From Patescibacteria group bacterium (GTDB lineage Bacteria; Patescibacteriota; Gracilibacteria; JAHISY01): 56,272 bases of DNA. Both the position numbers and the translations under genes were made by a program. The stretch is from positions 1-56,272 of the forward strand of contig JBDRMN010000014.1 of NCBI GenBank assembly GCA_043812055.1, read 5' to 3'. The notes beneath the pieces were generated by a model that worked only from the letters and a program-made list of their open reading frames with translations, was not told where the DNA came from and did not search any database. The number at the start of each line of letters is the position of its first letter. Position 1 is the stretch's first letter. This document shows, in pieces, positions 10,668-11,942 of the stretch.

Positions 10668-11499
10668 TTCCCTTAAAAAAAGAAAAGGAGTTATTTTAAC
10701 ATAATTCACCTATGTGTTAAGTAAGCGTTTTGTATTTGCTTTTGTCATCGAAATAGTGTATCATTACAAGAACAGTTACTGAGATGTTCTTTGAAAAATA
10801 TGTGAATCTTGAGGCGCAAGTGGTGATGAACCTGAAACCGTTTGTTGTCGCCAGTTGTGCCTCAAGCTTCGAATGGCAGTAATAGGCCTGGTTGTAAACT
10901 TTCCCAAAAGTTTATGGTCACTATTAACTCGTTCTAAACGGGCTTGGTGTTTAGAGAGAAGTAGTAGACAGATTGTAAGTTAAGGTGACTTAATTTACGA
11001 GAGGTTAATGCAGTAATGTTTTAATTTTTACTCTAAGCTCTTATCTGATGTTGAAAATGCTATTTGAAACTTGAGGCTTTTTTTATCCGCCTTCGCAGAA
11101 AACTCGAAGCCGGAACTGGGAGCTGAATGCGTCTAAACTGAAAGAATTAAAATGCTTATACAGCTCTGCTTCCGCCTTCGCCTTCGGCTACGGCGGACAG
11201 GTCGGCGGATTCCGCTTCTGACCAATAAAACCCAACCCAAGGTAATAGGGTTGGCGAATTAATTGAGAAACCTCCAGCGTAAGCTGGAGGAGCTTCATGG
11301 CGTAACTGACTTTTGGGCGAATCTCATTTAACCAAGCTGCGATTATCACCTTTTTATTCGTAACTATACACAAACACTCCCTCGAAGAATTTACCAAAGG
11401 AAGAGGTCCGTGCGAGAAGATGCGCAAAAATGGTGCGGAAGCGTTTTGCATTTGTAAAAAGCTGATTTTTGGCTAAAATCTCTTCACTTTGTCAGGGAA

Positions 11500-11547
11500 A
11501 GTGGTATCCCGCGGACGCGGGATCATAACCCGAAGGTCGCGGGTTCA
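11500..11547 (+). pseudogene. tRNA-fMet fragment A (roughly positions 15-57 of the intact gene)
   Basis: agtggta...tcataacccgaaggtcgcgggttca matches the intact tRNA at 11868-11942. The exception is the D-stem/anticodon-stem junction, which is replaced by tcccgcggacgcggga. Confidence 0.8.
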
Positions 11548-11570
11548 TCGGAAAGTATCTAGAATCTCAT

Positions 11571-11612
11571 CGCGGGGTGGAGCAGTGGTATCCCGCGTAC
11601 GCGGGATCATAA
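11571..11612 (+). pseudogene. tRNA-fMet fragment B (positions 1-38)
   Basis: cgcggggtggagcagtggta...gggatcataa. Identity to the intact tRNA stops right after the anticodon-loop CATAA. Confidence 0.8.
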
Positions 11613-11627
11613 TCCAAAGATCGTTAA

Positions 11628-11888
11628 ATGTTTTATGTTTACATCCTCAAATCTCAAGAAGGAAAGTATTATGTGGGACAGACAAATAATCTAGAGCTGA
11701 GATTAAAAGAGCACAATGAAGGTAAGAAAGGCTTTACAAAAAAGTACACTGGATGGAAACTGGTTCATACAGAGACGTTTCAAGCAAGAAGTGAAGCATT
11801 AAAAAGGGAAAGAAAAATTAAATCACTAAAATTCGGAGAAACATTCAGAAAAGTTTTCGACTCTTATCGCGGGGTGGAGCAGTGGTAG
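11628..11888 (+). CDS. GIY-YIG nuclease family protein (small, YhbQ/UPF0213-like)
   Basis: FYVYILKS..GKYYVGQTNNLELRLKEHN and EALKRERKIK are the GIY-YIG signature. The last 7 codons and the TAG stop lie in the first 21 nt of tRNA-fMet. Confidence 0.85.
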   Translation: MFYVYILKSQEGKYYVGQTNNLELRLKEHNEGKKGFTKKYTGWKLVHTETFQARSEALKRERKIKSLKFGETFRKVFDSYRGVEQW

Positions 11889-11942
11889 CTCGTCGGGCTC
11901 ATAACCCGAAGGTCGCGGGTTCAATTCCCGCCCCCGCAACCA
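11868..11942 (+). tRNA. initiator tRNA-fMet (CAT)
   Basis: Cloverleaf folded by hand: C1-A72 mismatch, three G:C pairs closing the anticodon stem (GGG/CCC), CTCATAA loop, GGTTCAATTCC T-arm and an encoded CCA. Confidence 0.95.

Follow-up and report, generated by a model that had tools for sequence, protein, structure and literature searches.

How did a gene for a small GIY-YIG nuclease come to lie between partial copies of an initiator-tRNA gene and the intact gene, which it overlaps? The question is raised by a tRNA-fMet locus in a 56,272-nucleotide stretch of Patescibacteria DNA (contig JBDRMN010000014.1), referred to below in its whole length as the window. The answer that we favour, with a probability somewhat better than even, is that a compact selfish cassette sits in the initiator-tRNA gene and spreads by break-and-repair, with the duplicated tRNA arms serving as homology; cleavage and mobility are the parts of this reading that we infer. 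The cassette unit would comprise 297-298 bp, i.e. a hairpin, a tRNA-derived leader (tRNA positions 32-48), an 86-amino-acid GIY-YIG gene and a replacement copy of tRNA nucleotides 1-20. The replacement copy would restore a complete tRNA-fMet downstream, and the host's original nucleotides 1-20 would be left at the native promoter as a hairpin-capped pseudo-copy.

A first-pass annotation, made from the sequence of the window, had described an intact initiator tRNA preceded by two tRNA fragments and by a small GIY-YIG open reading frame (ORF) that ends inside the tRNA. The tRNA at 11868-11942 was confirmed (ARAGORN; Rfam, 69.4 bits), and its sequence has the hallmarks of an initiator, i.e. the C1/A72 mismatch and a GGG/CCC anticodon stem of three G-C pairs. 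The ORF at 11628-11888 was likewise upheld (Pfam, E=1.1e-18), and its 3' end, YRGVEQW-TAG (codons 80-86 and the stop), overlaps tRNA nucleotides 1-21. The host may be near the groups with genetic code 25, by which the ORF is unaffected since TAG is a stop; long ORFs under table 11 in the window suggest the standard set of stop codons.

The two upstream fragments are real (20/20 and 29/30 identities to the tRNA), but they are not simple pieces of tRNA: both hold a 16-nt palindrome, TCCCGCG-NA-CGCGGGA, that is foreign to the tRNA sequence, and fragment A is followed by a remnant of an ORF. The longer match belongs to fragment A, in which 11518-11547 align with tRNA 27-56 (BLAST within the window, E=8e-10). 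For fragment B, identity had been traced to position 38, just after CATAA; it stops at position 20, positions 21-31 are taken by the palindrome, and positions 32-48 resume with three transitions. The match of the partial copies to the tRNA is far beyond chance and recurs in relatives.

Because the 23-nt ORF remnant sits behind fragment A, this fragment was read as part of a second tandem unit of pseudo-tRNA and ORF. The remnant lies in a repeat (D2) of 11548-11595 with 11845-11892, 79% identical over 48 nt, and tblastn places amino acids 75-86 of the ORF on 11553-11588. From 5' to 3', the locus thus has the promoter, unit A, whose ORF is deleted, unit B, whose ORF is live, and the intact tRNA, at a unit period of 297 nt. 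The arm next to the live ORF has kept 100% identity to the tRNA; in unit A, without an ORF, the arm is decayed. The earlier proposal of repeated invasion at the anticodon loop is supported in its first part, as the tandem units fit repeated invasion, but not in its second: tRNA identity in the window breaks in the D-loop, at position 20/21. Neither a second GIY-YIG copy nor a cassette at the other three tRNA genes was found within the window.

The features of the locus are given in Table 1. Its promoter-like site aligns with TTGAAA/TAAAAT located 5' of the tRNA in an empty relative (L123) and 5' of the pseudo-copy in an occupied one (L001), and by this alignment corresponds to the putative native tRNA-fMet promoter of related genomes. 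Transcription of cassette and tRNA together from this site, upstream of fragment A, is plausible, as had been suggested at first.

Table 1. Features of the tRNA-fMet locus in window coordinates
Feature	Position	Strand	Basis or remark
Promoter-like site TTGTAA-16-TAAAAT	11452-11479	+	sole sigma-70-like site in 10700-12300
Unit A, decayed tRNA 5' part	11480-11506	+	positions ~1-14 degenerate (11480-11499); AGTGGTA (tRNA 14-20) intact
Hairpin A, palindrome TCCCGCGGACGCGGGA	11507-11522	strand-less	one loop difference from hairpin B
Unit A, copy of tRNA 32-56, TCATAACCCGAAGGTCGCGGGTTCA	11523-11547	+	BLAST and alignment
Remnant of older GIY-YIG ORF (last ~23 nt; remainder deleted)	11548-11570	+	repeat D2 and tblastn
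Unit B, duplicated 5' arm (tRNA 1-20)	11571-11590	+	20/20 identical to intact tRNA; BLAST within window, E=3e-6
Hairpin B, palindrome TCCCGCGTACGCGGGA, in place of tRNA 21-31	11591-11606	strand-less	alignment to tRNA
Unit B, copy of tRNA 32-48	11607-11623	+	three transitions; followed by TTAA, then ATG
GIY-YIG (Slx1/UPF0213-type) nuclease ORF, 86 amino acids	11628-11888	+	Pfam GIY-YIG, 1.1e-18
Intact initiator tRNA-fMet(CAT) with encoded CCA	11868-11942	+	ARAGORN tRNA-Met(CAT); Rfam tRNA, 69.4 bits

Empty sites were sought in related genomes, which were picked through the neighbouring DusB (window 13806-14774); its closest named matches were from Candidatus Gracilibacteria, Peribacteraceae and Patescibacteria (72-77% identity), which also places the host of the window in the Candidate Phyla Radiation. 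Three of the five DusB-linked relatives have no tRNA-fMet near dusB and are uninformative for empty sites. In L123 (DusB 77%), TTGAAA-N16-TAAAAT is followed by a leader and a tRNA-fMet, with no pseudo-copy, hairpin or ORF, and the tRNA-fMet site in L125 (DusB 75%) is likewise empty, directly behind a promoter. Two loci, L001 (ORF 85% identical in amino acids) and L002 (70%), are occupied, with tRNA 1-20, the identical 16-nt hairpin, tRNA 32-48, ORF and intact tRNA in this order. A third, L131 (71%), follows the same plan with the hairpin TACCGCGTACGCGGTA, in which the stem has a compensatory change (TACCG...CGGTA). More distant is L130 (40%), with a different, 20-nt palindrome between tRNA nucleotides 22 and 23; allowing for one extra base in the D-loop of this tRNA, the junction is one base off the 20/21 of the window. 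The L130 pseudo-copy runs on to CTCATAA ahead of the ORF. The variants that L002 and L131 have in their own tRNAs are present in both copies of each. In L001 and L002 the copy of tRNA 32-48 (variable region) supplies GAAGG 6-10 nt before the ATG, likely as a ribosome-binding site.

The tRNA of the empty L123 is identical to that of the window at 75 of 75 positions; the occupied allele differs from it only in the upstream flank, and its pseudo-copy is without nucleotides 21-31. The host of L001 is as distant (DusB 75%) as the hosts with empty sites, and the L001 pseudo-copy occupies, at the promoter, the position of the L123 tRNA (empty and occupied sites were aligned here as short segments). 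From this comparison the cassette is taken to be an insertion, with the original 5' end of the gene displaced but retained at the native promoter. The expectation that related genomes would hold both empty (L123, L125) and occupied sites (L001, L002), with the target regenerated by partial duplication and no intron or intein context, was thus borne out. The surroundings of L002 have two further features: upstream of the occupied tRNA-fMet (4789-4868) lies a tRNA-like sequence ending in GGTTCAATTCCCCCTCGCTCCACCA, for which ARAGORN makes no call, and a primase-like gene and two genes for tyrosine recombinases follow downstream (5399-7176), so that this tRNA-fMet appears to be shared with an integrative island.

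The ORF product matches the Pfam GIY-YIG family (PF01541) with 67.7 bits (cut-off 22.6; E=1.1e-18) over residues 1-67. Y5, Y15, G17, R25, H29 and E61 are invariant in an alignment of 37 homologues, and we take the residues of the window protein to be equivalent to Y6/Y17/R27/H31/E75 of I-TevI. A profile search of the PDB returned the UPF0213 proteins 1zg2 (BH0048; 1.2e-18) and 1ywl (EF2693; 3e-16), followed by Slx1 (3e-8). The AlphaFold model (predicted local distance difference test, pLDDT, 77) gave 1zg2, 1ywl and Slx1 (6seh) as top Foldseek matches, and superposes on Slx1 of the Slx1-Slx4 branched-DNA complex (2.1 A, 70 columns). In the model, residues 81-86, the tail that the tRNA encodes, are disordered, with pLDDT below 50. 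By sequence and fold, the protein is a minimal member of the Slx1/UPF0213 (YhbQ-like) branch of GIY-YIG nucleases: its 86 amino acids include no auxiliary domain, and the homologue alignment has no invariant Asn after E61. No DNA-recognition module as in I-TevI or Seg was found with Pfam and NCBIfam, which give only sub-threshold matches overlapping the catalytic domain. Among the ORFs of the window, L001 and L002, the proportion of differences at synonymous sites is 0.76-0.90 (saturated) and that at non-synonymous sites 0.09-0.19; the ORF is therefore under purifying selection.

The arrangement is widespread. Scans of genomes and metagenomes with peptide motifs of this subfamily (10 closer sequences) gave 116 further loci, and 119 loci, the window included and most of them on metagenomic contigs, were analysed. 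A tRNA lies within 150 nt of the ORF in 74 of the 119 loci, on the same strand in all except one of these, downstream of the ORF in 48 and upstream in 26; 30 anticodons are covered, and tRNA density is 0.97 per kb near the ORF compared with 0.09 per kb in the flanks. The first-pass annotation would have been contradicted by homologues without tRNA association; with 73 of 119 loci carrying a same-strand tRNA within 150 nt, the association is massive. A partial copy of the same tRNA lies across the ORF in 61 of 73 cases, and its best segment is 100% identical in 49. Where the intact tRNA is downstream, the upstream pseudo-copy has a perfect 5' arm; where it is upstream, the downstream pseudo-copy has a perfect 3' arm and a diverged 5' part, which the ORF end overlaps. 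The arm adjacent to the native flank is thus identical and the internal part degenerate, and both arrangements are seen for one tRNA among nearest relatives. Formally, a single circular permutation [ORF, pseudo-5', hairpin, pseudo-3'] yields both, by recombination with the tRNA at one or the other flank of the hairpin.

All ORF pairs with at least 70% identity share the amino-acid type of their tRNA, and many pairs at 55-67% differ in it, which therefore points to occasional retargeting; in 31 out of 71 cases, the type agrees with that of the nearest labelled neighbour. Some loci form tandem arrays, and some have a truncated ORF. Searches of phages and plasmids gave two weak matches each, and 2.9 million viral contigs held 10 relatives, one of them beside a tRNA-Cys. 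The best of these relatives (L132, 16-329 of an IMG/VR contig; 54% identity) is found at the extreme end of a 37.7-kb 'viral' contig, 17 nt 5' of the tRNA-Cys, and is probably at a prophage boundary at a tRNA. On plasmid AZO_p3 of Azospirillum lipoferum 4B (L129, 255506-255799), a gene annotated as 'GIY-YIG nuclease family protein' stands alone between sufB and sufC with no nearby tRNA; it is an intergenic insertion in a conserved operon.

The hairpin is under strong constraint. Hairpin B is identical at 16 of 16 positions across the window, L001 and L002, and also in L003. Folded alone it reaches -11.8 kcal/mol (z = -3.0) and so stands out, whereas the RNA of whole pseudo-copies folds no better than shuffles (z -1.7 to +0.25). 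Up to 250 nt from the ORFs, hairpins of the type TCCCG...CGGGA have about 15 times the density seen in the flanks, and the top stem bases of the 288 near-ORF hairpins, TCCCG (36) and CCCCG (15), are not prominent in 1441 distant hairpins. In the family the hairpin is typically 15-17 nt long, up to 41 nt, with the outer 5 bp conserved and the inner stem covarying. It is always positioned at the inner edge of the perfect arm, in most pseudo-copies takes the place of exactly one cloverleaf arm (anticodon, T or D), and its distance to the ATG clusters at 16-26 nt. It probably either serves as the structure that the Slx1-like, structure-specific nuclease reads or acts as a barrier delimiting the exchanged arm; a stem base that is conserved while the length varies favours a structure-specific enzyme that recognises the hairpin in its folded form.

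Further hairpins of this grammar were observed elsewhere in the window. Between convergent genes, 22078-22205 form a composite palindrome of 128 nt (40-nt arms, 93% complementary) with four nested hairpins, TCCCCGCGAAAGCGGGGA, TTCCCCTGCCTGACAGGGGAA, TTCCCGCGTACGCGGGAA and TCCCCGCTTTCGCGGGGA, the third of which includes the 16-nt hairpin of the tRNA locus letter for letter (22154-22169); this could be a solo relative of the hairpin, similar to a miniature inverted-repeat transposable element, or a cluster of terminators. Two TCCCG...CGGGA hairpins lie at 6838-6857 (TCCCGGTGATGTTACCGGGA; intergenic, upstream of the ORF at 6897) and at 41979-41997 (TCCCGAGCACTTTTCGGGA; inside ORF 40862-42052). 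Long inverted repeats occur also in the family. In L081 (2950-3440) two of them are adjacent, with ends of the TCCCGAT/ATCGGGA type, one enclosing the ORF and the next an intact tRNA-Thr; these could be RNA processing stems or recombination sites. In a subclade of ORFs of 84-86 amino acids with the C-terminus ...KKRI..SL.. (L070, L088, L097, L099, L101/102, L110, L117, L118, L068), the ORF is bracketed by perfect inverted repeats of 12-19 bp, which start with CCCC(C/G)CAC and directly adjoin the start and stop codons. Behind the right repeat arm, L070 and L117 have GGAGGAAAGTC, which resembles the P3/P4 junction of RNase P RNA, with no Rfam call.

In the favoured reading, i.e. the selfish cassette spreading by break-and-repair, the nuclease would break DNA in or beside an unoccupied tRNA gene, and host recombination would mend the break by copying the cassette from an occupied allele. 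The repair would draw on tRNA homology at both ends of the cassette, with the duplicated arm at one and the intact tRNA at the other; the choice of target would then be carried largely by the DNA arms, not by the tiny protein, and arrays might be built by repeated events or by unequal exchange. The cassette borrows the promoter position of the tRNA, the D-loop TAG as its stop codon and, in relatives, the tRNA-derived GAAGG as ribosome-binding site.

Several points weigh against this. An 86-amino-acid catalytic domain is without the recognition module of known GIY-YIG homing enzymes. As the tRNA of the occupied allele is identical to that of the empty site, a target inside the tRNA would stay cleavable; immunity, if any, must stem from the changed upstream flank. 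The relatives with empty sites are not conspecific (about 75-77% DusB identity), and the pattern fits gain as well as loss, recent or old. The GIY-YIG identity of the window to L001 (85%) exceeds the DusB identity (75%) and hints at transfer, but constraint could account for the excess equally well. Finally, the loci were selected by peptide motifs, by which the percentages describe this clade and not all UPF0213 proteins.

The best surviving alternative, which we regard as rather unlikely, puts structure-specific mobility at the centre: the nuclease would recognise folded hairpin, cruciform or cloverleaf DNA (YCCCG...CGGGR and the stem-loops of stable RNAs) and land there by transposition-like or nick-initiated copying, and the tRNA duplications would be by-products, kept because the tRNA must survive. 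It accords with the structure-specific Slx1 nucleases being the closest characterised relatives of the protein, with the replacement of exactly one cloverleaf arm by the hairpin in most pseudo-copies, with closely related ORFs being found at different tRNAs, and with the stem pattern given above (conserved outer 5 bp, covarying inner stem, 15-41 nt), which suits a folded stem base better than a duplex operator. The ORF lies inside a TCCCGAT...ATCGGGA hairpin in L058/59, L077, L087 and L081, although in the window it lies outside the hairpin, and about 12 loci have perfect inverted repeats of 10-19 bp around the ORF. The same reading would fit locus L107 (208-849), in which a homologous ORF (359-616) occupies the P12 terminal loop of a complete bacterial RNase P RNA gene (Rfam, 304 bits) with extended stem arms on both sides, and the GIY-YIG ORFs inserted at stem-loops of rRNA genes in the Candidate Phyla Radiation (CPR; PMC11270868). 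However, hydrolytic GIY-YIG enzymes cannot join DNA, and host repair would still be required, which blurs the line to homing; neither a circular junction nor a target-site signature was seen, and all ORF pairs of at least 70% identity share the amino-acid type of their tRNA. As a separate observation, the ORF lies just downstream of RNase P RNA in L072 and L119.

Improbable, in our estimate, is a resident and immobile operon, in which a host Slx1-like gene for repair or processing is fixed between tandem tRNA duplicates and co-transcribed with them, the pseudo-copies are decaying, and the hairpin is an element of RNA processing or stability. In its favour, the ORF is under strong purifying selection, the position of the hairpin 16-26 nt before the ATG in many loci would suit a 5' stabiliser of mRNA, members of the family are only very rarely met in phages, plasmids and viral contigs, and bacterial Slx1-like proteins have been treated as vertically inherited (PMC1564403). 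Against it, the architecture is found at 30 anticodons and in many phyla with arms that match the local tRNA, for which many independent insertions would be required; occupied and empty sites occur among equally distant relatives; the arms are 100% identical despite saturated synonymous sites; truncated ORFs and arrays are present; and the pseudo-copy RNAs show no folding beyond that of shuffles.

Largely refuted, and very improbable, is a leftover of another tRNA-targeting process (the att duplication of an integrase island or prophage, or a degenerate group I intron of tRNA-fMet). In its favour, integration into tRNA genes is a classic pattern, cyanobacterial tRNA-fMet genes are known to harbour group I introns with homing endonucleases, and the recombinase genes of L002 lie just downstream of its tRNA-fMet. 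In the window, however, the tRNA is uninterrupted, no integrase is near the locus, the ORF leaves hardly any room between the copies, and no ribozyme was matched; moreover, the repeat is of the 5' part and lies 297 nt away, in contrast to an island with a repeat of the 3' end at its far side.

Individual candidates were excluded as follows. For a group I intron, the tRNA is continuous, and Rfam at E<=1 over 10500-13000 gave tRNA only, with no ribozyme or other RNA. For an integrase-type island, no recombinase was found among the neighbouring ORFs, and the repeat of the 5' part is 297 nt away. For an IS200/IS605 or REP/RAYT element, to which only the hairpin grammar is similar, the six neighbouring ORFs scanned gave no match to a transposase family (HUH/Y1). 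Across the ORF list of the window and these six scanned ORFs, no integrase or transposase was seen near the locus.

Going beyond this locus, we tentatively consider, at well below even probability, that such cassettes are widespread mobile elements of about 300 bp, in which an Slx1-like nuclease recognises DNA in folded form, namely the YCCCG...CGGGR hairpin and, in stable-RNA genes with heavy transcription, the stem-loops or cloverleaf, and specificity resides in short duplicated arms, i.e. 'homology-addressed' cassettes that retarget by arm swap and always rebuild the invaded gene. If true, a very small and very common kind of mobile DNA would be added to the bacterial repertoire, and some members of the 'UPF0213/YhbQ' family, whose annotation is that of hypothetical proteins or of repair proteins, would be recast as selfish nucleases. 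The element could live in the essential, single-copy initiator-tRNA gene at almost no cost, borrowing its promoter, ribosome-binding site and stop codon. It would also account for a class of pseudo-tRNA pieces and tandem arrays of tRNA-like sequences by which the annotation of tRNAs is confused in genomes of the CPR, Bacteroidota and others. Should arms and hairpin set the targeting, the cassettes would be a natural example of homology-addressed insertion beside essential genes, and would offer a testable link between Slx1-type structure-specific cleavage and mobility.

A literature search of incomplete coverage gave no description of tRNA-embedded Slx1-like cassettes with hairpin-capped pseudo-tRNAs; the known systems that come nearest each share a part of the pattern. 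The protein has its best sequence and fold match, with the same invariant residues, in the UPF0213/Slx1 family (E. coli YhbQ; BH0048, 1zg2; EF2693, 1ywl; eukaryotic Slx1), whose canonical members are, to our knowledge, not embedded in tRNA genes. Bacterial Slx1-like proteins have been described, in a GIY-YIG phylogenomics study of 2006, as vertically inherited repair proteins with a minimal domain that lacks the conserved C-terminal Asn (PMC1564403); the cassette clade, in contrast to canonical members, behaves as a selfish insertion.

Integrative elements that target tRNA genes likewise leave an intact tRNA and a partial direct repeat behind; however, they are kilobases long, use a tyrosine or serine recombinase and duplicate the 3' end, whereas the cassette has 300 bp and a nuclease only, and duplicates the 5' part here and the 3' part in other family members. 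IS200/IS605 elements, REP/RAYT and integron attC sites resemble the cassette in the conserved stem base, the covarying inner stem and the position at the element boundary, as well as in the solo hairpin copy elsewhere (22154-22169); unlike them, the cassette has no HUH or tyrosine transposase, its enzyme is hydrolytic, and its hairpin stands at one boundary beside a homology arm.

In the same host radiation, rRNA genes of the CPR carry non-intron insertions with GIY-YIG ORFs, which were judged to be outside homing in a study that did not treat tRNA genes and the hairpin (PMC11270868). These, too, are placed at the stem-loops of a stable RNA, with the relative in RNase P RNA (L107) as a parallel; in the rRNA genes, however, the RNA is interrupted and the insertion presumably removed or tolerated at the RNA level, whereas the cassette keeps the tRNA whole by partial duplication.

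Similar in genetic behaviour is the Seg family of T4-like phages, in which SegB of T4 is a free-standing GIY-YIG homing enzyme within a tRNA gene cluster (PMC2330249). Common to both are a GIY-YIG gene among tRNA genes with neither intron nor intein, the expected spread by break-and-repair with co-conversion of flanks, and the presence/absence polymorphism between relatives. In contrast to the Seg proteins of more than 200 amino acids, with several domains that include DNA-binding modules, the cassette protein is an 86-amino-acid catalytic domain of the Slx1/UPF0213 branch, and its hosts are bacterial chromosomes instead of phages; the cassette, moreover, lies within a tRNA gene that it both overlaps and partly duplicates, and it carries a conserved hairpin.

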